This document shows positions 6,149 through 18,235 of a stretch of 64,000 nucleotides of DNA, in pieces. The notes below the pieces were generated by a model. It made no database searches and was not told the origin of the DNA. It saw nothing but the letters and a program-made list of their open reading frames with translations. The DNA is taken from positions 1 to 64,000 of the IMG/VR virus record IMGVR_UViG_3300035670_000068; one strand, given 5' to 3'. The stretch comes from a virus. The position numbers and the translations under genes were made by a program. Position 1 is the stretch's first letter. The number at the start of each line of letters is the position of its first letter.

Positions 6149-6529
6149 TTAGTTAGTAGTCCAACGCTCCAAGCGGAGATCAGCCATCGTGACCCGATCA
6201 CCTGCTTCGAGAGCGTCTTTCAGCTCCTTGGCCCGTTGGAAGACGTTCAGCGTGTGCCGGCCCATCAGGCTCTCCGCTTTGACCATCAGATCGTACAGTT
6301 CGGCCCGGTTCATCCTCGCACTGGTGTTGTCGTAAAAGAACCACTCGACCTCTTCACCCTCTTCCATACTGGAGATCACGTCGCGCATCCGCTGCCTGCT
6401 GATGTTGTCAAACTGGAGCAGCTTTCCTTCCACTCGAATGACGGTCTCAGCAATGCGCCTGGAAGAGTTGATATCGCCCTTGGTGGCCTCGATCAGCGAT
6501 CTCGGATCGTGATTACCCAACGATGGCAT
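6149..6529 (-). CDS. Tail fibre assembly-like protein (DUF4376-like)
   Basis: Position next to fibre; FD..SRQRM..VEWFFYDNTS pattern. Confidence 0.55.
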   Translation of the reverse strand: MPSLGNHDPRSLIEATKGDINSSRRIAETVIRVEGKLLQFDNISRQRMRDVISSMEEGEEVEWFFYDNTSARMNRAELYDLMVKAESLMGRHTLNVFQRAKELKDALEAGDRVTMADLRLERWTTN

Positions 6530-6911
6530 TTACTTCTACCTCTTTGGCTGGGAAGTTGGAGAACTTGAAGTAGTAGCTGCCCGGCTCGTTCGTCGACCAC
6601 TCGATGAAGCCATCATCTACCTTCGTTCTGCCGCCCGGATAGATCAGGTCGGTGCCTACCGGGATTCCTTCGATCCGAAGCACTTCGCCCACTGCCAGGT
6701 AAGCGTCGCCCTGGATGGACAGCGCCATTTCCGGTCTGGGTTCCGGCGAGCCGTCCTTGATGTAGAACTCGCGACCGTCTACTTCAAGATCGAGAATGGC
6801 TTCGAGGTCTTCTCGACCCATCTTTTGCAACAAAACGCTTTCCTCGTCGGGCGCCACGACGTTCATGACGATTCGCCCAGACTGTTTTTCGTATAGCAGA
6901 CCTACTTTCAA
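6513..6911 (-). CDS. Tail-associated protein
   Basis: Coupled ORF in tail operon; YE..SGRI N-terminus and beta-rich C-terminus. Confidence 0.55.
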   Translation of the reverse strand: MKVGLLYEKQSGRIVMNVVAPDEESVLLQKMGREDLEAILDLEVDGREFYIKDGSPEPRPEMALSIQGDAYLAVGEVLRIEGIPVGTDLIYPGGRTKVDDGFIEWSTNEPGSYYFKFSNFPAKEVEVNAIVG

Positions 6912-7669
6912 TTTCTTCTCCTGTAATTCGCCTCTATGTATGGCGACGGGTTCATCAGGTGAGATATCGAATCCAACCTGGGTTCATCGAGCTCGAAGCC
7001 AGCTTTCTTCATCGCCTGGTCAATCTCGGATGGAAAGTAAGGCTTCCAGTGAGGCTGCAGCAGCCAGTGCCGGAGTTGCTTCTCTTCCTTGATCATCCGA
7101 TCAACGAACCGCCTCTTGCTGTCGGTAAGCGGCATCGAGCTAACTAAGCTGTGAATTAGCATTTTAGCCTGAGTCATATCGCCAAGCGATAGCCACAAGT
7201 CTAGGAACGCCTCTCTTACCCCTTTCAGATCGCCCCAGAAGAACTCAGAGTCGTACCCGAAGTGAGCTACCGTTCCTGCCATCGAGCACTTCCCCAACAG
7301 AGAAAATACCTGCTCGAATGCCTGCTCTGGAATCCAGGACAGAAGACCTGGTGAGCCTATGAATCCGAAGGAGCCAATGCTCTCGTCGATCTCGGAAAAG
7401 TCCGCTCTGATGTATCTGACGTTCGCCGGCGCCATTCTTCTGGCCGCTTCGATATAGCCCCGATTGAAGTCGATGCCGACAATGGACCAGTCCGGGTTTC
7501 TCAAAGCCATATCGTTGACCGCGATTCCGTCCCCGCAGCCTAGAATCAAAGCGGACTTTAGCTCCGCTCTTTCTATAGCTCTCTCGATTCTCGGCATCTG
7601 CGCTGAGAGATAACTGGTCTCTGCGGAAAGTTGGTAGTTGGAAACACCGTTGATCATCGCTTTCTGCAT
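6908..7669 (-). CDS. Class I SAM-dependent methyltransferase
   Basis: Motif I LILGCGDG, motif II VGIDFN, ADFSEI, GLLSWIP. Confidence 0.8.
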   Translation of the reverse strand: MQKAMINGVSNYQLSAETSYLSAQMPRIERAIERAELKSALILGCGDGIAVNDMALRNPDWSIVGIDFNRGYIEAARRMAPANVRYIRADFSEIDESIGSFGFIGSPGLLSWIPEQAFEQVFSLLGKCSMAGTVAHFGYDSEFFWGDLKGVREAFLDLWLSLGDMTQAKMLIHSLVSSMPLTDSKRRFVDRMIKEEKQLRHWLLQPHWKPYFPSEIDQAMKKAGFELDEPRLDSISHLMNPSPYIEANYRRRN

Positions 7670-8211
7670 CCTACGGTTACAGCTCCCAGGAAGACCAGTT
7701 TGATCTCGCCCGTTCCTGTCTGATTGCTCATAGTTGGCGAATCCTGCAGCACCAAACTGTACGAGGTAGCAGAGTTTGCGCTGATCTCGAAGTCGATGAA
7801 ACGAACCACCTGCATAACTGGAATGTAGCCGACAAGACCACCGCCTTTGTCTGCTCTCTTATATTCGGTATTGATGTTCACCGCTTCTGTTCTGTACAGG
7901 GCGCCATTTTTGTACAGGTGAATGTACCCAATGGCATTGATACCCTTCGCTTCGATTCGCATTGGAACAATAATGTCCGCTACCCTGGCAAAAGGCTGGG
8001 CCGGAATTGCGAAGTCCACTCTTTTGGACTCAGCTGCGAAGTTGAAACCGTAATAGGCGGAAACTGCGCCATCGCGGATATTCACTTCTCTAACCGCCTC
8101 GATATTGTCAGACGAGAATGTTCCAGAGAACGTCCCGGATGCACCGACCATTCGACCGCGAAAGATCGCGTTTGCGTCGTTGAACTCTGCCCAACCAGCT
8201 GGAATCGTCAT
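7654..8211 (-). CDS. J C-terminal-like tail tip module 3
   Basis: Begins AEFNDANAIFRGRMVGASGTFSGTFSSDNIEAV; paralogous to the two upstream ORFs. Confidence 0.7.
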   Translation of the reverse strand: MTIPAGWAEFNDANAIFRGRMVGASGTFSGTFSSDNIEAVREVNIRDGAVSAYYGFNFAAESKRVDFAIPAQPFARVADIIVPMRIEAKGINAIGYIHLYKNGALYRTEAVNINTEYKRADKGGGLVGYIPVMQVVRFIDFEISANSATSYSLVLQDSPTMSNQTGTGEIKLVFLGAVTVGCRKR

Positions 8212-8666
8212 GTATTAGCCAACCCTGTATTTCTGATGTACCTGCAGAAGATATAACCCTTCACCGAAGTTCCGGTGAATCCCGATATCAGTCTTACGTT
8301 ATGAACGCCCTTTGCGAGCGGGATGATCTCTACGAAAGGCAGAAGCTCGAAAGACGGACCTCTTCTGTTTCTATTCGGCCTTGTTGCTCCGTTCACCTGG
8401 AGCGCAGAAGCTCCGTGCCCAAAAGCGATGATCTCGATCCATGCGTTGTTATCCGGCACGTTGATATTCCCGGACAGCATCACACCACCCTGCGCAACCG
8501 CAATGCTCGAATATCGGAAGAAGAAGTTGTAAGTTACCTGGTTGCCGGCGATGTTGATCGTATCGACGGCATTTACAGCCTTCGCAGTCAGCTTGAAGCG
8601 CGCCTGTCCTGTCGCACCTCTCAACTGACCGCGAAACATCACGTTGGATACTTCGATATAGGACAT
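8208..8666 (-). CDS. J C-terminal-like tail tip module 2
   Basis: Begins IEVSNVMFRGQLRGATG..LTAKAVNAVDTINIAG. Confidence 0.7.
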   Translation of the reverse strand: MSYIEVSNVMFRGQLRGATGQARFKLTAKAVNAVDTINIAGNQVTYNFFFRYSSIAVAQGGVMLSGNINVPDNNAWIEIIAFGHGASALQVNGATRPNRNRRGPSFELLPFVEIIPLAKGVHNVRLISGFTGTSVKGYIFCRYIRNTGLANT

Positions 8667-8667
8667 A

Positions 8668-9276
8668 TCACTTCCTGATGTAGTCTGCCCGAATTGTCAC
8701 GTCGTAGAACTCTGGATATACGTTCGTCGGGTAATCGTGCCAACGATATTGCAGAGCAATTGTGTGATACCCAGGTCCAACCTTCGCGGACACTTCATGG
8801 AAGAAGTATTTGAACACCCGATAGAACCACTTGAACTGAGTGGACTTAGGCGAAGTGAAAACCACCTGGCCGTCGATCAGAATCCTGTACTCAGTCTGGA
8901 AGCGGTCGTTATCCTGCCGCTGGTCGTTGATGTAATACTGGATGCCCGCAGTCACCCAGCCACCCTGCCAGTCACTACTCGGCACCTGGAAGCTGAGCGT
9001 GTGAACGCTTCTCCAAACCGAGTCGTCGTCGAAAATATCAGGCACATACCCGATGTAGCTGACGGTGGTGATAGCAGTCGCCCGGCCAGCGATTGTCAGG
9101 TTCTTCACAGCGTCGATTGCATTGGCAGTCAGTGCGCCGTCGAAGGTTCCCTCCATAGCGGACACATTGCCGTTGAAGATCGCGTTGTTGAACTCTGCCT
9201 GGAAGGCTTCTGATACCACCACCCCGTCGCCTCTATCGTATTCCAGGGTGATGGTGCCTACTTTTTTATGATCCAC
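8668..9276 (-). CDS. J C-terminal-like tail tip module 1, probably expressed as a -1 frameshift extension of J
   Basis: AEFNNAIFNGNVSAMEGTFDGALTANAIDAV; lies in the -1 frame at A_AAA_AAG 9267-9261. Confidence 0.75.
   Translation of the reverse strand: MDHKKVGTITLEYDRGDGVVVSEAFQAEFNNAIFNGNVSAMEGTFDGALTANAIDAVKNLTIAGRATAITTVSYIGYVPDIFDDDSVWRSVHTLSFQVPSSDWQGGWVTAGIQYYINDQRQDNDRFQTEYRILIDGQVVFTSPKSTQFKWFYRVFKYFFHEVSAKVGPGYHTIALQYRWHDYPTNVYPEFYDVTIRADYIRK
9215..9267 (-). other. Putative programmed -1 ribosomal frameshift signal (A_AAA_AAG plus 12-bp hairpin)
   Basis: ATA AAA AAG TAG ends J; 5 nt later ACCATCACCCTG (9255-9244) pairs with CGGGGTGGTGGT (9226-9215). Confidence 0.75.
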
Positions 9277-12200
9277 CCCGAGACCCCGGCGACATAGTTG
9301 TCACTCTGCAGGTCTCCGACAATGGCGTTTTGGATCACCACCCTGTTCTTCGCGGCGTCAACGGTGAAGACCGGGATTGTGTTGGTCGTACCAGGCTTCA
9401 CCACCTTGAACCGATCCGCGACGATAGAGAACTCGCTCGCCACACCACCACCAGAAGAGTTTGTAGTAGCCAGTCCAAAGCCAACCACATGACCGTTACT
9501 GTTGATCTTGACGGTGTACTGCGCCTTCAAGCCGTCGATGGAAGTCATCGCCTGGCTGATCGAGGTGGTGTTCTCGCCAACTGTCGAGCTGACGGTATCG
9601 ATCCGGCTACTCAGCGCACTGTCGGCGTTCGCCCGAGCCTGAGACTCGCTGGTGATCTTGCCTTCTGCCGTGCCGACTCTCGAAGTAAGAGTAGTCAGCT
9701 GGCCAGAAAGAGCGGTGTCAGCGTTCGCTCGCGCTACAGCCTCATTGGTGATCGCCGACTGAATGTCGTTGTTCACCTTCGCGCTCAGGGAAGTCACCTG
9801 GGCAGCAATGGCCGAGTCTGCGTCAGCTCGCGCAATCTGCTCTTCCCGCAGGGCTGCAGCGATATCGTCGTTGACCTGGGCGCTCAGCGTCGTGATCTGG
9901 GCGCTCAGCGCGCTATCAGCGTTCGCTCTGGTTTGACTCTCTACCCGCAGCTGGGCAGCGATATCGTCGTTCACGCGAGCTTCCAACTCGGTCAGCATCG
10001 TCGCGATGGCCTGGTCCTCAGTGACCAGAGTTGCGACTTCTTGGCGAACGAACGCCTCTACGCCGGCGATGGCTTCCTTGCGCTGGAAGATTTCCATCTT
10101 GTTCGAGTCGGTGACGTTCTCGACCTTCGCAGCCAGCTGGCTGACAATGGCAGAGATATCCTCCAGACCAGACTCTTTCGTGACCTCGCTTTGCAGCTGG
10201 TCATCCAGATCGGTCAGGCCGATACCGCCAGGGAACAAGTCGGAGATCGTGTCTGCAGGCAGGGTCTTGACCGACAAACCGTTAGTCGGGGCAAAGCCAG
10301 ACTTCTTGTCGTTGGCCAGGATGTTCACCGCTCTCACCCAATAGGTGTAGAAGGTGTCCGGGGCCAGACCGACGTGCGGATAGTGGTCGTTGCCGGTGAT
10401 CGCCAGCAGGGTCGCATCGTTGATGTTGGCGTTTTCGCCAGGCGCTGCCCACACCTCGTAGCGATAGACGTTCTTGTTCGCCGCCCAGGAGTCGATGTTG
10501 CCCCACTTGATCTCAATGAGGTTCTTGCGCGGCTCGGCTCGAATGTCTTCCGGGGCACCAGGTTGCGTCGGAGCACCCGGCAGCACTTCCTTGACGTGGG
10601 TAGCTACAGAGTCGAAGGTCGGCTTGTTGCCCTGGATGTTCACCGGGACGATCTTAACCCGCAGGTTGCCAGACGAAAGCTCGACCTTCGAGCTGGACGC
10701 TGCAGCCTCGTAGAGTCTCCAGGGCTCGCTGTCGATGGAAACGTGGACTTCGCCGTACAGGTAGTTCGGACTCGAGTGTTCCCAGGAGAACTCAACTTCC
10801 GACTTGTACAGGCCTCCAGACAGGTATCGACGTTCCTGGAAGCCTCGGAAGGTCACGTTGCTCAGGACTGGTACAGTCGGAACCGGGGTTGGCTTGAACT
10901 CGACAACCTCGTCGTCGTAGGCCTCGTCCGAATACTCGATTGCGATGATCTTGCGCCAAATGTCGGTCGAGCCGCTGCTGATCGCGTTTACCGAGAAGAG
11001 CCCAACCACGTTTTCAGATACGCCGAATGCCCAGGGCGTTTCTTCTCGCGGTGCGATTTTCAGCGGCGCAGCCAGGTTCAGCTCTGTGTACTCGACAGAG
11101 GTGTCCGAAGGCATGACCACGTTGACGGTCTCGATCACGTCGGTGTCGACCAGCTGGATCGTGTCGCCGATCTTCATGCCTACGGCCGAGTCAACCAGAA
11201 CGCCGTGTCTGCCGAACTGGTCGATCACCGGCTCCAGGACAGCAACGTCCTTACCGCTCGGCACATGGATCAGGCGACGGTAACGATCGATCGATCTCGC
11301 GTTGAAGCCGAAGCTCAGGAACAGGGTGTTGCCCAGAATCGCGTCGATCTCTGCTGTCCACTGGACAACCTTGTCGTGACGGATCATGACGACGTGCTGG
11401 GTGCCGATCTCGAACTTGACCGGCCTGTCCAGCTTGACCTTCGTTTTGGTGGAGCCGGATGCCAGAGCACCGCCCATCCCCCACTTCGCCATATCGTGCT
11501 GAACGGCGATCACGTCGCCGAGCGTACAGGCGATGGAGTCCAGCGGGACTTCGAAGTTGATGGTCTTGAGCAGGACGTTCATGTTCATCGCCAGGGTCGC
11601 TTCCCTGGTGGCCTGCTCCAGATTGTCCACCCCGTACAGCGTCATTTCAGTCGGCTTTGGATGGTCGCCGCGAGCGCGAGCGCGAGGACTGTGAACGGTC
11701 ACAGTCTTCTGCTTGCCGAAGTCGTTCCTGTCGAAGTAGGTCACAGTCACTTCGTTGGCGCGCTCGTCTGCCGGCAGCCAATCGATGTTCATTGAGTCCT
11801 TCTTTACGCTGCTCATGGTGAACAGCTGAACAGGCTTACGCTTGCCTACGATGGAGACCTGAAACTTGGTGCCGGAACGAACAGGCATACCGCGACCGGC
11901 CTTGAAGATCGGCAGCAGAGCGTCCCAGAGGTTCGTTTTCTGGTCGATCACGCCGTTGAACTTGAGACCGTTGGCCTCGCAGTATTCGGCCCATTGGCGG
12001 AAGTAGCTGAGCTTGATTCGCTCCATGCGAATGCCGCCGCCGTAGCGGGTGTTCGTCATCGCATCGACAACGATCCAGGCCGGGTTGTCGGTCCACCGCT
12101 CGACGTAGTTGCCTGTCGCAGCGTCCCACACTCGAACCTTCCGGCCCTTCACTCGGTAGGTGACTTTCGGGATTCCGTTCAGCTGGTCGGACAGCTTGAT

Positions 12201-13379
12201 TCGCAGACCCAGGAGCGCGGTGTAGCGATACTGGATATCGTCGAACAGAATCTCGTTCACGTCGGTCAAGGTGATCGAGTTGGCGGTCTTTTCGCTCTCG
12301 TCATCTTCCGTATGGGTTAGGCGGATTTCGTAGCGCTTGGACTTGTTCAGGGTCGTCGAGTAGTACGACTTCCGCATCGGGGACATGGATTTGCCTTCGA
12401 TGCGAATCTCAGAGCTGCTGCCGTTGAAGGGCAGCCAGGCGCTAGTCCCCTGCTCTCTGATCTCGGCTCTGAAAGCAGTGGAAGTCCCTCTCATGCCGTC
12501 TTCGTCGTCAAGGTAGCTCAGGCCTTTCGGCAGGACGATATCGATCCGCAGACGGTCAACCGGGTCGGTGATCGTGTGAAGAGTCCAGACGCCGGACTTC
12601 AAGTTCACATTGCGGTTGATCGGCTTGATGATGTCGTTGAAGTACGGGATGACTTCCTGATCTTTTGCGCCAAATCGCTTGAAGATTTCGATCTCGGAGA
12701 AGTTCGAGAGCGGCTGGTCGTTCACATGGATATCGGTAATGTCCTCGATTGGACCCTCACCGACGTTCAGCAGCATGTGCAGGTACTGAGTGTCGTCCGA
12801 GTTTTCGACGTAAGTCTGGACGAAGTTGCCCGCAAACCAGGACTCGCCGTACACAACAGGCACGGGCACGTTCTTGGTAGAGAGGTTCTTCGGTCCATCG
12901 ATCCCGTAGGTGGGACTGCTATTAAACCCACTACCTGAGCCTGGCATCTGCGGCTTCGGCGGGGGCAGGATCGCGTTCACCAGCATAGTGCCGCCGATCA
13001 TGACACCGGCAGTCACTACGGCTGCACCGACCGTACCGGCGCCGAACAGGGCCGCGCCAGCATAGGGTGCGAAAATCGCAATGGCGATCATTGCAACAAG
13101 GCGCATGATGGTTTTGCCGCTGCTCTCGCCACCACCACCCAGGAGGATCGGCGCAATGACGACGCAATCGCGCTCAGTCAGATAGGTCTTCGACCATTCC
13201 GACTTATGCACCATGCGGCCAGAAACCGAAACGGCCCACTCTCCATCGAGGGGGCCGAGATACTTGGCCAGGCTCTTGCGTGGCTTGTATTCGCGCTCAA
13301 CCAGGTTGCGGGACTCTGCGGGAGTCAGCGGGTTGGCGATGTAGAGGAAAGTGACCTTACCCTTCTCGATGACCGACAT
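9258..13379 (-). CDS. Central tail tip / host-specificity protein J (lambda I-J-like fusion)
   Basis: VPVVYGE, GEGPI, DNPAW, FN3-like region, coiled coil, DUF1983-like AQYTVKI..GFGL..F.I.ADRF; start chosen at MSVIEK. Confidence 0.9.
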   Translation of the reverse strand: MSVIEKGKVTFLYIANPLTPAESRNLVEREYKPRKSLAKYLGPLDGEWAVSVSGRMVHKSEWSKTYLTERDCVVIAPILLGGGGESSGKTIMRLVAMIAIAIFAPYAGAALFGAGTVGAAVVTAGVMIGGTMLVNAILPPPKPQMPGSGSGFNSSPTYGIDGPKNLSTKNVPVPVVYGESWFAGNFVQTYVENSDDTQYLHMLLNVGEGPIEDITDIHVNDQPLSNFSEIEIFKRFGAKDQEVIPYFNDIIKPINRNVNLKSGVWTLHTITDPVDRLRIDIVLPKGLSYLDDEDGMRGTSTAFRAEIREQGTSAWLPFNGSSSEIRIEGKSMSPMRKSYYSTTLNKSKRYEIRLTHTEDDESEKTANSITLTDVNEILFDDIQYRYTALLGLRIKLSDQLNGIPKVTYRVKGRKVRVWDAATGNYVERWTDNPAWIVVDAMTNTRYGGGIRMERIKLSYFRQWAEYCEANGLKFNGVIDQKTNLWDALLPIFKAGRGMPVRSGTKFQVSIVGKRKPVQLFTMSSVKKDSMNIDWLPADERANEVTVTYFDRNDFGKQKTVTVHSPRARARGDHPKPTEMTLYGVDNLEQATREATLAMNMNVLLKTINFEVPLDSIACTLGDVIAVQHDMAKWGMGGALASGSTKTKVKLDRPVKFEIGTQHVVMIRHDKVVQWTAEIDAILGNTLFLSFGFNARSIDRYRRLIHVPSGKDVAVLEPVIDQFGRHGVLVDSAVGMKIGDTIQLVDTDVIETVNVVMPSDTSVEYTELNLAAPLKIAPREETPWAFGVSENVVGLFSVNAISSGSTDIWRKIIAIEYSDEAYDDEVVEFKPTPVPTVPVLSNVTFRGFQERRYLSGGLYKSEVEFSWEHSSPNYLYGEVHVSIDSEPWRLYEAAASSSKVELSSGNLRVKIVPVNIQGNKPTFDSVATHVKEVLPGAPTQPGAPEDIRAEPRKNLIEIKWGNIDSWAANKNVYRYEVWAAPGENANINDATLLAITGNDHYPHVGLAPDTFYTYWVRAVNILANDKKSGFAPTNGLSVKTLPADTISDLFPGGIGLTDLDDQLQSEVTKESGLEDISAIVSQLAAKVENVTDSNKMEIFQRKEAIAGVEAFVRQEVATLVTEDQAIATMLTELEARVNDDIAAQLRVESQTRANADSALSAQITTLSAQVNDDIAAALREEQIARADADSAIAAQVTSLSAKVNNDIQSAITNEAVARANADTALSGQLTTLTSRVGTAEGKITSESQARANADSALSSRIDTVSSTVGENTTSISQAMTSIDGLKAQYTVKINSNGHVVGFGLATTNSSGGGVASEFSIVADRFKVVKPGTTNTIPVFTVDAAKNRVVIQNAIVGDLQSDNYVAGVSGWIIKK

Positions 13380-13743
13380 ATCGGTAGAAGCCCTCGATGC
13401 GTTTTTGCCAGTCTTCGAGTCTTTCAACGACGACGCCGCCACTGCCTTCCCAGGCATGAATGAAGGTGTAATCGTCTAGCACAACGCCGACGTGGCACGG
13501 ATACTTGTAAATGCGGATCAGGACTACGCAGCCGGGATGCGGATCGCATCGCTCCCACTCGTCCATCTGGCAAGCCATCAGAGCGTGATTCACGTCCAGG
13601 CTTTCGGAGAACTGGCGAACCGGGTAGTTGGCCCCGCTTCTGCGGCCCATTTCCACCACCACGCCATAGCAATCGAGGCCGCCGTCTTCGAGACTGCGGC
13701 CCCCGTATTTGAAGGGCTTACCCAGCAGGTCGATGTAGTCCAT
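13357..13743 (-). CDS. NlpC/P60 tail tip protein (lambda K-like)
   Basis: GKPFKYGGR..LDCYG..HVGVV..FIHA. Confidence 0.85.
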   Translation of the reverse strand: MDYIDLLGKPFKYGGRSLEDGGLDCYGVVVEMGRRSGANYPVRQFSESLDVNHALMACQMDEWERCDPHPGCVVLIRIYKYPCHVGVVLDDYTFIHAWEGSGGVVVERLEDWQKRIEGFYRYVGHREG

Positions 13744-14369
13744 CAACCCCTCACAATGATGCCTGGATAGCCACCGAAGTTTTTCGAGTTCCACTTTGCC
13801 CTGCAGCCGTTCGGCCCGTTCAGGGTCAGATCGCAGGTGCCGGCAGGGCCGGTATATCCGCAGTTCTGGTCCTTGAAGCGGAAGCCGCACTGCTCGTCCT
13901 CCTGGCGCCTGGCCGGGAAAATCTGACGAAGCGGGTTTTCTGCCCCCAATGTCCAGCTAACCACATAGTTCGAGACGCCCGAACTGATGACCTGGAAATA
14001 CTCGGTGAGCTCCGGGTCGGCTTCGGTGTCAGTTGCGGTGGTAGCACGCACGATGATCAGGTCAACGTCGAATCCGACGCCGCCGCCGTATCGCTGCATG
14101 TAGGACTGGACGATCTGGGTCTGGTCCTGGATCGTGATAGTGAGGGTGGGAAGCTCGTTCGCCTTCTCGTTGATCGAGATCGAGAACGGGAAAGGCTCGT
14201 AGTCTTCGCCCTGGATCGAGGTGATCTCGGTGTTGTTCACAACACGGATTACCTCAACCACAGAGTTGGTCTCGGGGTCACGGACATGAATCTTGAGCGC
14301 GATCAGCCAGGCCTCGTCCGACTGGATTTGGTTCTTGGCGATGATCGATGCAATCGAGAGGTTCTTCAT
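13743..14369 (-). CDS. Minor tail protein L-like (hub)
   Basis: C-terminal Cys cluster C..F...CGY.G...CD.TL..C and FGGYPG. Confidence 0.8.
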   Translation of the reverse strand: MKNLSIASIIAKNQIQSDEAWLIALKIHVRDPETNSVVEVIRVVNNTEITSIQGEDYEPFPFSISINEKANELPTLTITIQDQTQIVQSYMQRYGGGVGFDVDLIIVRATTATDTEADPELTEYFQVISSGVSNYVVSWTLGAENPLRQIFPARRQEDEQCGFRFKDQNCGYTGPAGTCDLTLNGPNGCRAKWNSKNFGGYPGIIVRG

Positions 14370-14408: not shown

Positions 14409-14777
14409 TTAAACCTCAATCAGTTCAATGTCGGTGATGTTCCACAGACGGGTCGGCCCCATGCCCTTATACTTTGCGGTGAAATTCTTGTTGAACCTGA
14501 CCTCGTGGGTAGTCCCAGTCGCCGGGTTCGTGTAACCGAACTTCGAGTAGGTGCCGACAAGTTCGTAGAAGGCCTCCAGGATGTTCATCTGATCCTGAGT
14601 GATCATCGTGAAGCCCGTCTTGAACGTCTTTCTCGGCCGCCTGGTGTGGCGAGGTCTGACGTGAACATAGCCGCCGTCAGCCTCACCCTTTAGACCCTTG
14701 TCCTCATACTCGATGCCGAAGTATTGAGAGTCCTGGATTTCCGCCAGGACACTCGGGAAGTTAATGCTTGTAGCCAT
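14409..14777 (-). CDS. Distal tail protein (lambda M-like)
   Basis: Small beta-rich ORF directly after TMP. Confidence 0.7.
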   Translation of the reverse strand: MATSINFPSVLAEIQDSQYFGIEYEDKGLKGEADGGYVHVRPRHTRRPRKTFKTGFTMITQDQMNILEAFYELVGTYSKFGYTNPATGTTHEVRFNKNFTAKYKGMGPTRLWNITDIELIEV

Positions 14778-17700
14778 TACGCTGCACCTTTCACTGCGTC
14801 ACGGAGGGCGCCTGGGCGGTTGACCGCTTTCAGCACCACGTCCACGACAAACTGTTCACCGTCGAAGGATTGGCCAGTCTGTTCACCGTTCATCTGAGTG
14901 CCGGACTGGTTGATCACGTTCACCGAAACTCTCGGCTGTTGAGCCGGCTGCTGACCGCCACCTCCAGCCATCTGACCCTGGAGCGTTACCGGAATTGTTC
15001 TTCCGTCAGGTAGCGGAACGTAGGCCTCTGCCATAGAGCCCTCGCCGAACACAGCTACTTGCGGGGATCGCGCGATGCCGCCATTGGCGTATTCCTTTAG
15101 CTTGGCGTTGCCCCACTTGGTCATGATGCCGCCATTGGCATAAGGCTGAGCTGCTACCCAATTGGAGAAGTCGGTTCCGGTGTAGCCAGCCTGTGTTGCA
15201 CCAGCAGACATAGAACCGCTTGCTGCGCCCGCCCCGCTCCAAGCTCCGGCGATGGACGTTGCGATACCAGCAACGGCCTTTGCGACCTGAATCTTGATCA
15301 GCTCCTTCAGGACGTACTGCACGAAGTCGGCGATCTGAAACTTGCCCTCGATCAGACCATCTGCAACGGTGTCGGAGAAGCTGTCCATCGCGGAGCCCCA
15401 CAGGGACTTGTACTGCTCAGAAGCGTCCTGGTTCTCTCGAATCCACTTCTGCAGGCCGGACTCAGTGTCACGTTCGTGCTTGGCTCGCAGAGCCGAGATA
15501 TAGCTGTAGTAGGCGTTCCAATCAGCCTCGCTCACATCCTGCGCGCTTGCCAGCTCGGCGTAGTATTCCCGAGCCTGCTGCATCTGATACTCGAACTCCT
15601 GGTCGATCAGCTGACTCTGGGTCTTCATCGAGTCTTCGATTTCCTTGGTGCGAGCGTTCAGAGCTTTAGTAGCTCCGCTGATCGCAACACGGTCGATCTT
15701 CTCGTCCAGGTCTTCGATTACGGCTCTCGCCTCGTCGATCTTCGCAGAGAGCTCGGTTTCGCCCTGAGCGTTGGCAGTGGCTTGAGCTCGGGCCAGTTCT
15801 TCCTGAATACCGACGATCTCTTCGCGGTAGCGCTCAGCGTCAGCGCTCGCCTTGAGCCACTGGTTTTCGTTCTCGTTCTTGAGCTGCTTGCCGGTCAGCA
15901 CCTTCTCAATCTGGTTCACTCTGTCGAGAGATGCCTGATAGGAGTCGGTAGCTTCCTTGACAGCTTTGGTGGCCTTCTCCTGCTCCCAGCGCTGAGCCGC
16001 GAACTGTCGAGCCTTCTCGATCATGGCCGGGTCGGCGCTCTGACCCATTTCAGCCATGTTCTGCAGAACCTGTTCGAGCTGAGCCAGGTGCGGGTTCGCT
16101 TCTTCCGCAGTAGCGCCGGCCTTCGCGACGCTCAGAGACAGGCTGCTCATGAACTTGACGAGCGGGTTGAACTTGGCCGCCCCACCAGCAGCGCCAGCGC
16201 CCCCACCGACAATGGTGTCTTGCAGGTTGGTCTTCTGAATGCTGTTCAGGCTGTCGCGAGCTTCGTTCAGCTTGAGAGTGTACTCGTCAGCCTGCTTGGT
16301 CGCGGATGCCAGTCTCTCCCTCAAGCCCTGGCTTGCCGAGTCGCCGGCCAGCTTGATCGTCTGTTCAAGGCTGGCACGCTGCGCTTCGACTTTGCTCAAC
16401 GCTTCGGTGTACTGGTCAATCTGATCCTGAACGCCCAGACGGCCAAGCTGACCAAGACCATCAACATACTGTTCCTGGGTGATCTCGCCGCGCTCGCGCT
16501 GGTCAGCCAACTTCTTCTTGTTGATCTGGTACTGGCGAGTCAACTCGGCGACTTTCTTCTCTTCGGCCAGGATCGCGGCACGAGCTTCCCGCTCGCCGTA
16601 GATTTGAGCGAGCTCTTGCCTACCCTTAGAGATATCCTCGTCTACCTTGCGAATCTCTGCTTCGGCCTTAGCTTTGGCGGCTCGGTATTCGCGCACGTTC
16701 GCGAAGTCGCCCTGCATACCGATTGTGTAGTTGCCTCGACCGAATCGCTCTTCCAGCTTCTCCTGGAGAGATTTCTTGTGATCGAGCAGGGTTTGCAACT
16801 GAGCGTTGTTGGTCAGAGCGCCATTCAGAGACAGAACCTCGTCGCGAGTTTTGCGAACCTCGTCCTGATACTCCTTCCAGGCCAAGCCACCGGCAACAGC
16901 GGCCATAGTGACCATGCCAATTGGGCCTGTGATTACACCGAGAGCGCCGCCCAGAAGACCCAGACCGCCTCGCAGCAGAGTGGATTGGGTAGCTGCGCCG
17001 GCAATCGATTGAGCGGCCTGGGTGGTCGGGTTGGTGAAGTTCACCATCGACCGGCCTGTGGTGGCGAGCATAGCGCTCAGACCCATGCCAGCTTGTTGCG
17101 CGAGCGCGACCTTGCCTGCAAGCGAAGAGATACTGCCGGCCATCGCGTCGGTTACGCCCTTGATGACGCTGTAGCCCTTCACAGCGCCGTAGACGTACAG
17201 GAACGCCTTGCCCCACTCATACAGAGCTTCGCGATGCTCAACGATCCACTTCACGCCTTCCGCTGCGATCTTGACTAGCTCAGCTAGGGCGCGGCCGAAC
17301 TCTCTCGCGGAGTCGATCATTTCCGGGTCGGAGAGGATATCGTTCAAGCTATTCAGCTCGCCGGTTAGCGTGCTGAAATAGCCGCCCTCTTCGTAGCCGT
17401 CGTCGTTCAGGCCGCCGATGGCCAGAGCGAGGCGCTTGGTGGTGGTTTCGAACTGAGCGACAGCGCCGTTCCAGGTCTCTGTCATTGCTGCGGCGCGGCC
17501 TTTGAACGAGCGCTCAAGCTCGGCCATCATCGCTGCCAGAGCAGGCTCAGATTTTACCCGGCCCAGGCTGATTTGCTTCACCAGGTCGGAGTAGGTGGTG
17601 CCCAGCGCATCGGCCATTGCGTTGATGGCCACAGGAACGCTCTCGCCGAGCTGTTGACGCAGCTCTTCCATACTGACCACCCCTTTACCAGCCATTTGCT

Positions 17701-18235
17701 GAATAGCAACAGCGGCTCGTTGGAGGTTCTGGTCAGTGCCGCCGAACGCAGCAACAGAGTCGATCAGGGTGTTCAGGCTCTTTTCGGCAGGATCGAGGCC
17801 GGCGACGCGCAGCTTCACAAAGCTGTCAGTGATCGAGTTCAGGCTGAAAGGCGCAGTGGATGCGCGGTCGAGCAGACCCTGCACATCAGCAATCGCCTCT
17901 GCGGTTGCTTTGGTGCTATCGGTCTGCATCGAGAAGTTTTTCATCAGCTGGATCGAGCGTTCCATTTCGGCGTTGACCGAAACGATTGCCCGCTGCCAGC
18001 CAAATGCGGCGTCGGAGACGTTCTGAATTGCGGATCGAATCAGGGAAAGGACGATCACGCCGTCACGCAGGGCGCTTCCCCACGAACGGGTAGACCGCTC
18101 AGCTCTGCGAATGGCCTGATCTGCAGCGCCACTTCGCTGAATGAACTGAGCCAACTGGCCGTCAGCTCTCTTGAGGTTGAGCGTAAATTCGCTGCCATCG
18201 AGAGACAGCTCTACAACCAGTTGACCCAAGCTCAT
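14777..18235 (-). CDS. Tape measure protein
   Basis: 1152 aa, helical and Ala-rich; tape-measure motif QMAGKGVVSMEELRQQLGE; C-terminal ANGGI repeats. Confidence 0.92.
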   Translation of the reverse strand: MSLGQLVVELSLDGSEFTLNLKRADGQLAQFIQRSGAADQAIRRAERSTRSWGSALRDGVIVLSLIRSAIQNVSDAAFGWQRAIVSVNAEMERSIQLMKNFSMQTDSTKATAEAIADVQGLLDRASTAPFSLNSITDSFVKLRVAGLDPAEKSLNTLIDSVAAFGGTDQNLQRAAVAIQQMAGKGVVSMEELRQQLGESVPVAINAMADALGTTYSDLVKQISLGRVKSEPALAAMMAELERSFKGRAAAMTETWNGAVAQFETTTKRLALAIGGLNDDGYEEGGYFSTLTGELNSLNDILSDPEMIDSAREFGRALAELVKIAAEGVKWIVEHREALYEWGKAFLYVYGAVKGYSVIKGVTDAMAGSISSLAGKVALAQQAGMGLSAMLATTGRSMVNFTNPTTQAAQSIAGAATQSTLLRGGLGLLGGALGVITGPIGMVTMAAVAGGLAWKEYQDEVRKTRDEVLSLNGALTNNAQLQTLLDHKKSLQEKLEERFGRGNYTIGMQGDFANVREYRAAKAKAEAEIRKVDEDISKGRQELAQIYGEREARAAILAEEKKVAELTRQYQINKKKLADQRERGEITQEQYVDGLGQLGRLGVQDQIDQYTEALSKVEAQRASLEQTIKLAGDSASQGLRERLASATKQADEYTLKLNEARDSLNSIQKTNLQDTIVGGGAGAAGGAAKFNPLVKFMSSLSLSVAKAGATAEEANPHLAQLEQVLQNMAEMGQSADPAMIEKARQFAAQRWEQEKATKAVKEATDSYQASLDRVNQIEKVLTGKQLKNENENQWLKASADAERYREEIVGIQEELARAQATANAQGETELSAKIDEARAVIEDLDEKIDRVAISGATKALNARTKEIEDSMKTQSQLIDQEFEYQMQQAREYYAELASAQDVSEADWNAYYSYISALRAKHERDTESGLQKWIRENQDASEQYKSLWGSAMDSFSDTVADGLIEGKFQIADFVQYVLKELIKIQVAKAVAGIATSIAGAWSGAGAASGSMSAGATQAGYTGTDFSNWVAAQPYANGGIMTKWGNAKLKEYANGGIARSPQVAVFGEGSMAEAYVPLPDGRTIPVTLQGQMAGGGGQQPAQQPRVSVNVINQSGTQMNGEQTGQSFDGEQFVVDVVLKAVNRPGALRDAVKGAA

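Follow-up and report, generated by a model that had tools for sequence, protein, structure and literature searches.

The stretch of viral DNA analyzed here, hereafter the window, comprises 64 kb (positions 1 to 64,000 of the IMG/VR record IMGVR_UViG_3300035670_000068). All coordinates refer to the window, and all of its tail-module genes discussed below lie on the minus strand (Table 1). Our subject is the end of gene J, which encodes the tail-tip protein or central tail fiber, and the three short open reading frames (ORFs) called behind it. The assignment of J rests on its Pfam domains (FNIII-A_GpJ, PF24801; Phage-tail_3, PF13550; fn3, PF00041; and Phage_Tail_Tip, PF09327), on a match to PHROG 31 (central tail fiber J; E 2e-185), and on synteny, with tape measure, L, K (NlpC/P60), and J genes in this order. 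Very probably, as judged from the sequence, a programmed -1 ribosomal frameshift takes place at the end of J, and the first of the three ORFs would then encode an extension of J (ext). The other two, B and C, are free paralogs of this extension.

Slip site, stop codon, and hairpin at the end of J

On the minus strand, the 3' end of J reads GGG TGG ATC ATA AAA AAG TAG, and the protein ends in SDNYVAGVSGWIIKK, i.e., in GWIIKK directly before the stop. The heptamer A_AAA_AAG, the 5-nucleotide (nt) gap, and the 12-bp stem that the first-pass annotation had described at this site were found at the same positions on re-reading. The spacer between heptamer and hairpin is TAGGC, 2 of the 12 stem pairs are G-U, and the minimum-energy structure computed by RNAfold is the same helix (-26.3 kcal/mol, z -2.96). 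After a slip, the -1 frame would continue as KK VGTITLEYDRGDG and on to AEFNNAIFNG. No stop codon interrupts this frame (KK-VGTITLEYDRGDGVVVSEAFQAEFNNAIFNG and onward) for 197 codons, up to the TGA at 8668-8670, so the earlier description of a frame running through AEFNNAIFNG into the ORF at 8668 holds. A pseudoknot between the hairpin loop and downstream sequence (GAGGC/GCCUU), also suggested in the first pass, can form in the window and in one relative (L009) and is impossible in relatives with short loops. It is thus not a conserved feature, and we set it aside as a conserved part of the signal.

Upstream of the heptamer, the window carries GGGG at a distance of 8 nt, a candidate Shine-Dalgarno-like stimulator. 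Nothing comparable was found in L007 or in L010 to L013; such an element is an optional feature for this class of frameshift site. The sole -1-frame start codon upstream of the slip site in the window is a GTG that overlaps a Trp codon of J (GGG TGG read as G GTG G).

The junction between the two frames falls within a recognizable domain. The PF09327 match of J is cut at profile position 117 of 139 by the J stop, and reading through the junction carried it to 124 of 139 and raised its score from 44 to 49 bits, the read-through product used for these Pfam searches and for the PDB sequence searches being one residue short with a garbled tail (folding used another sequence). The first-pass annotation had stated that GW.I.K.G.AEFNN is normally contiguous within J. 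Indeed, long fiber proteins of other phages carry the junction in a single frame, as seen in L041 (..SGQRGWLIQKDGNAEFNNGVFRG..) and P0145 (..TGWKIDKAGEMEMNNAVFRG..).

Conservation of the signal and of the three modules

The matches of a tblastn search with the -1 product were confined to the genus Nickievirus, phages of Pseudomonas syringae (nickie, Nican01, phiK7B1, ZY21, and hairong), with identities of 46 to 50%. Further relatives (L007 to L013 and L040) were obtained from IMG/VR and metagenome scans; a megablast search of the J-ext region against phages and a single-protein scan of IMG/VR with ext gave no match. The resulting comparison set comprised 10 distinct related lineages, made up of Nickievirus phages and IMG/VR contigs, among which ext shows about 30 to 50% protein identity. 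All of them (10/10) keep GW-x-x-KK, A_AAA_AAG, a stop codon, and then a hairpin after about 5 nt (4 to 6); the slip site and stem are thus shared with related phages. The stop is TAG in nine lineages and TAA in L010. Hairpin z-scores ranged from -1.8 to -4.1 in the 10 sequences, with the same spacing in all relatives. In the nickie-type hairpin, the 3' arm is encoded by G-D-G codons. The corresponding codons are noncomplementary in the window and in L009, where the 3' arm lies 9 nt further on (a shift in register). One stem position also shows a compensatory exchange, with a U-A pair in L013 and an A-U pair in L010 and nickie.

Codon usage sets the signal apart from the rest of ext. The K, K, V, and I residues at the slip site and in the 5' arm are each encoded by one codon across the 10 lineages, while the other invariant residues of ext use three to four different codons each. 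Synonymous sites elsewhere in ext are therefore saturated. By this comparison, the slip-site signal is conserved beyond coding need, with selection acting on the nucleotides.

Start codons and N termini were inspected as well. In three lineages (L010, L012, and L013), the -1 frame from the preceding stop codon up to the slip site contains none of the start codons ATG, GTG, and TTG. Where -1-frame starts upstream of the site are present (in the window and the nickie group, the Trp-derived GTG), they overlap or abut the conserved Trp codon of J. A family-profile search of 1.8 billion representative proteins returned full-length matches of about 200 amino acids, and 21 of the 29 N termini inspected start with x-x-K-K-V (or -A or -I in place of V), even with a linker that has diverged beyond recognition.

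Two observations concern the range of this arrangement. The metagenomic ext-family member P0124 begins with MAPGKV, not x-x-KKV, and this start may fit another slippery heptamer, e.g., G_GGA_AAG, at the equivalent place; single-protein IMG/VR scans with P0115, P0120, P0132, and P0124 gave no match. In L010, L012, and L013 (IMG/VR contigs of 37 to 61 kb), the zero-frame ORF ending at the slip site spans only about 390 to 407 codons, and the putative frameshift and module trio there sit on a far shorter fiber than the 1,300- to 1,700-amino-acid J of the 110-kb phages.

To count the modules, a hidden Markov model (HMM) of the shared motif was run on both strands of 67 fetched loci and the window. 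Sixty-five loci were classified; L036, L039, and L051 fell under the motif threshold or the length limit. Loci with a split J have exactly three tandem motif genes in the order ext, B, C (17 loci, 16 fetched plus the window), and loci with a fused J, in which the motif lies inside the long fiber gene, have exactly one (48 loci). No intermediate pattern occurred among the 65 classified loci. Across loci, B starts 1 nt past the ext stop or overlaps it, and C overlaps the B stop. In a maximum-likelihood tree of the modules, ext, B, and C were each monophyletic (support 100/95, 100/99, and 100/98, respectively), and the internal orders of the three clades match: L009 is basal, L010, L012, and L013 group together, and so does the nickie group. 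From these matching trees we conclude that the triplication is old and that the trio has been passed on intact, without loss, gain, or exchange.

The relationship among the three modules is also evident from profile comparisons. The ext, B, and C families match pairwise (hhalign probability of about 98%, E about 5e-13), and the motif HMM scored 74 to 79 bits in each, in agreement with the first-pass description of them as paralogs with a common N-terminal motif. The motif itself is a common fiber repeat, found in up to 20 copies in some long proteins. AlphaFold models had a mean predicted local distance difference test score (pLDDT) of 83.7 for ext and 83.1 for C, with a confident beta-sandwich head in both. 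The shared motif reached a pLDDT of only 46 to 57 in the ext monomer model and was poorly predicted also in C; low confidence in single chains is as expected for a segment that would be intertwined with others. The best Foldseek matches in the PDB were the lambda gpJ central fiber structures 8xcj/8xck (E 6e-7 for ext and 2e-6 for C), followed by other phage tip proteins and TNF/C1q-like trimeric lectins; for ext, matches to BC2L-C and C1q-like domains had E values of 1e-5 to 6e-4. At the sequence level, the ext profile gave a weak PDB match to lambda gpJ (E 0.36), aligned through the C-terminal end of both proteins. The models, which cover ext and C, thus predict a fold like that of the lambda gpJ receptor-binding domain (RBD). 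When the PDB was searched with the B and C sequence profiles, nothing meaningful was returned, and no solved structure contained a B- or C-like chain.

Probable frameshifting and the proposed composition of the tip

The first-pass annotation had proposed that frameshifting yields short and long J chains. This proposal is strongly supported, and frameshifting is the best reading of the locus given the conserved heptamer, stop, and hairpin, the fixed synonymous sites, the lineages without a start codon, the homologs that are in frame, the extension of the PF09327 match across the junction, and the agreement of independent assemblies described below. Slipping itself and its efficiency we infer from the sequence; the figure of about one third once put on this efficiency was conjecture and found no support.

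Three other explanations of the split gene were considered. An error in sequencing or assembly, or a J gene that was contiguous until a recent inactivating frameshift mutation, would agree with the contiguity of the homologs and with the error-prone nature of homopolymer runs. However, Logan contigs from four independent studies show no indel at the A6 run over 8900-9600, and the run is present in the 10 lineages, including five phages that were independently isolated and sequenced. The A6 run is thus real, with no A7; assembly error is refuted, and the probability of any explanation of this kind is negligible. Transcriptional slippage on the A run would give identical products, and A runs can cause polymerase slippage. 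This run consists of only six A, whereas known slippage-prone runs have 8 to 10 (Thermus dnaX and IS elements), and the conserved hairpin about 5 nt downstream and the adjacent stop are stimulators of ribosomal shifting. Length variants were absent from the four contig sets, a weak argument as contigs drop rare variants; two of these sets come from libraries labeled RNA-Seq, and that they represent RNA is a guess. We consider slippage by the polymerase very improbable. Finally, ext could be an ordinary gene translated without recoding from its own GTG or ATG overlapping the J end. Gene callers and five GenBank/RefSeq Nickievirus records annotate J and ext separately, and independent initiation of ext is conceivable at the GTG at 9276 in the window, which has GGGG 6 nt upstream, a point that must be held against recoding. 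This start, however, overlaps the conserved Trp codon, L010, L012, and L013 offer no start codon at all, and conservation extends to linker residues that precede any internal Met. An overlap alone also leaves the fixed heptamer, stop, and hairpin unexplained, and the homologs are contiguous. Separate translation of ext is accordingly rated as very improbable.

One contig set represents a variant about 6% diverged from the window. In the wastewater variant (run X5, about 94% identical over 8900-9600), no substitution was listed in 9146-9347, the region of slip site and hairpin, and about 40 substitutions, mostly at third codon positions, were listed in the next 250 nt of J. This substitution-free stretch of 200 nt around the signal is only suggestive, as nine differences were left unlisted by the tool.

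With frameshifting as the preferred reading, we propose the following mechanism. Most ribosomes translating J would stop at the TAG at 9258 and produce J-short, a central fiber that ends inside the beta-prism at GWIIKK. A minority would pause on A_AAA_AAG, with the stop codon and the hairpin ahead of them, slip back by one nucleotide, and add 197 residues, giving J-long. The added part would comprise a short beta-hairpin linker, one turn of the fiber motif, and a jelly-roll head for receptor binding as in lambda gpJ, and B and C would be free copies of this unit of motif plus head. J-short would form the fiber shaft, in a J trimer of two short chains and one long chain. One ext, one B, and one C would then intertwine via the shared motif into a pseudo-threefold head that is tethered to the fiber by the single J-long chain, with the two remaining strands of the last prism turn, and the two remaining heads, supplied by B and C.

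Given frameshifting, we lean slightly toward such a heterotrimeric tip of one fused and two free chains. It is favored by the three-versus-one rule, the monophyletic and congruent families, the predicted lambda-RBD-like fold (trimeric in lambda), and the poor prediction of the motif in a single chain. The heterotrimer would account for the position of the head behind a frameshift, the constant number of exactly two free paralogs, the conservation of three orthologous families, and the failure of the motif to fold alone. For the whole explanation, frameshift together with an asymmetric ext/B/C head, we put the chances at about even. The same balance applies to the broader statement that the tip is built asymmetrically from three paralogous chains, with recoding setting the stoichiometry of one headed J chain per trimer and two free paralogs.

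In addition to the GTG start, several points weigh against this proposal. The association of a split J with three modules probably has a single evolutionary origin, and the 17 loci would then amount to one event. Without directed assembly, if short and long chains combined at random, no more than 44% of the trimers would contain a single long chain. Both B and C have Shine-Dalgarno-like sequences of their own, so the amounts made of them may be independent of the frameshift. The lambda RBD is homotrimeric, and by this analogy J-long homotrimers are structurally conceivable. A keyword search of a Nickievirus paper found no virion proteomics.

Some of these points fit an explanation in which the frameshift is real but the products are homotrimers. 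J-long would form J-long3 with an ext3 head, and B3 and C3 would be separate virion proteins, serving as alternative tips that dock on J-short3 or as accessory adhesins; a phage population or particle would thereby gain several receptor specificities. Besides the lambda precedent and the ribosome-binding sites of B and C, solved J-like fibers that end 40 to 60 amino acids past the GW motif (9ze4_N, 9l9p_S, and 23gd_D) speak for this possibility, as they imply that the J-short end is viable. Short J-like fiber ends can also take a separate receptor-binding protein, as with T5 pb5. If tips were interchangeable, however, their number would be expected to differ among lineages, which should also have exchanged them. 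The free modules are instead always exactly two, and they belong to two old orthologous families with congruent trees. B and C also begin directly at the fiber motif, with no recognizable docking domain, and mixed trimers of short and long J would arise anyway. Homotrimeric assembly, the main rival of the heterotrimer, appears rather unlikely; the first-pass alternative, in which virions differ in their receptor specificity, may still apply.

Neighboring genes and relation to known systems

Several features of the surrounding tail module deserve comment. The first ATG of J (13457) sits inside the K gene, an overlap of 101 nt. Comparison with the J start of nickie points to Met27 (about 13379) as the more probable start, which would give a J of about 1,373 amino acids. 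Residues 73 to 221 of J (12795-13241) match PHROG 32 (tail assembly protein, lambda gpI-like), and a hydrophobic Gly/Ala-rich segment lies within this gpI-like N-terminal part. Because the window also has no separate I gene between K and J, the gpI-like segment appears to be fused to the J N terminus in this clade. On the other side, the methyltransferase gene separates C from the next conserved tail-region gene. It was absent from all nine related loci inspected (9/9), in which a gene of 132 to 144 amino acids directly follows C, and thus looks like an inserted moron. The DUF4376 gene stands two genes downstream. We take this domain to occur in tail-fiber assembly (chaperone) proteins; given that role for a nearby gene, B and C are unlikely to be fiber chaperones themselves. 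In Nickievirus relatives, the place of the DUF4376 gene and the side fiber is taken by a GDSL lipase and another fiber.

Table 1. Features of the tail module and of the end of J in the window
Feature	Position	Strand	Remarks
Tape measure	14777-18235	(-)	
122-amino-acid ORF	14409-14777	(-)	
L	13743-14369	(-)	PF05100
K	13357-13890	(-)	NlpC/P60
J, tail-tip/central tail fiber, zero frame	9258-13457	(-)	J-short, 1,399 amino acids from first ATG; Pfam, PHROG 31, synteny
Phage_Tail_Tip (PF09327) region of J	9261-9560	(-)	J residues 1300-1399 = profile positions 5-117 of 139
Slippery heptamer A_AAA_AAG	9261-9267	(-)	Zero-frame codons ATA AAA AAG; X_XXY_YYZ form
Zero-frame stop TAG	9258-9260	(-)	Immediately 3' of heptamer
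Putative stimulatory hairpin	9215-9255	(-)	12-bp stem 9255-9244/9226-9215, 17-nt loop
Three short ORFs as called	8668-9276, 8208-8666, 7654-8211	(-)	
ext, -1-frame extension (197 amino acids, P0247) plus TGA 8668-8670	8668-9261	(-)	Predicted beta-hairpin linker, fiber motif, lambda-gpJ-RBD-like jelly-roll head
Shared fiber motif in ext, about 45 amino acids	9064-9204	(-)	FQAEFNN..F.G....GTF.G.LTA.AI.AV..L.I.G...AITT; B and C begin with it too
B, free paralogous module (152 amino acids, P0001)	8208-8666	(-)	Starts 1 nt after ext stop, behind AGGAAG
C, free paralogous module (185 amino acids, P0002)	7654-8211	(-)	ATG overlaps B stop (ATGA)
Methyltransferase	6908-7669	(-)	Class I S-adenosylmethionine (SAM)-dependent, PF13649, E 2e-10
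132-amino-acid ORF		(-)	After methyltransferase in tail-module order
DUF4376 protein	6149-6529	(-)	
Side fiber, 1,131 amino acids	2711-6106	(-)	C-terminal Peptidase_S74 intramolecular chaperone domain

The putative slip site resembles those of Escherichia coli dnaX (tau/gamma) and IS3-family orfA-orfB, which have the same A_AAA_AAG and a stem-loop after a short spacer and yield two products per gene. Unlike in dnaX, where the shift truncates the protein, it would extend J; the zero-frame stop of J directly follows the heptamer, and the upstream Shine-Dalgarno stimulator of the dnaX type is not conserved, being absent in L010 to L013. C-terminal extension of virion proteins by frameshifting is reportedly found in the T7/T3 capsid (10A/10B), Lactobacillus phage A2 gp5A/5B, Listeria phage PSA Cps/Tsh, and the SPP1 tail tube (gp17.1/gp17.1*), and the tail chaperones G/GT likewise depend on a frameshift. 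As proposed for J, recoding at the gene end of 10A/10B, gp5A/5B, the PSA proteins, and gp17.1* gives a minority long isoform that co-assembles with the short form. Unlike J, the virion and chaperone cases concern capsid or tail-tube decoration or a chaperone; none is a central fiber or receptor-binding tip, and none has free paralogs of the added domain.

In the C-terminal part of lambda gpJ, both the beta-prism and the RBD behind it are trimeric (PMC11101478). The J of the window shares with gpJ (PDB 8XCJ/8XCK) the order of hub, FNIII, helical shaft, beta-prism fiber, and jelly-roll RBD as well as the L-K-(I)-J gene order. In lambda, however, J is one in-frame chain with a homotrimeric RBD. 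Here, the zero-frame product ends before the predicted jelly-roll RBD, which is encoded only in the -1 frame and is represented by three paralogous genes. A parallel for the proposed head exists in the C1q head (chains A, B, and C) and in TNF-like lectins, e.g., BC2L-C-Nt. These are jelly-roll trimers, and the C1q head is built from three paralogous chains. The analogy is one of architecture only, with no detectable sequence relationship, and the heterotrimer proposed here is inferred.

The tip with which lambda-like siphophages recognize their hosts is generally regarded as a homotrimer of J. In the full-text literature, which leaves subscription journals outside its coverage, we found no report of recoding in a central tail fiber or of a heterotrimeric fiber tip. 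If true, our proposal would describe the first central-fiber tip that is a heterotrimer, and the first phage fiber whose threefold symmetry is broken by frameshifting. Recoding would thereby have a new role, setting subunit stoichiometry and breaking symmetry, and phages would have a novel means of constructing and diversifying receptor-binding sites, in which each head presents three different surfaces. Nickievirus phages are studied for biocontrol of P. syringae. The five GenBank/RefSeq records list J and ext as genes without a relationship to each other, and work on the host range or the engineering of these phages would therefore currently overlook the real receptor-binding proteins.

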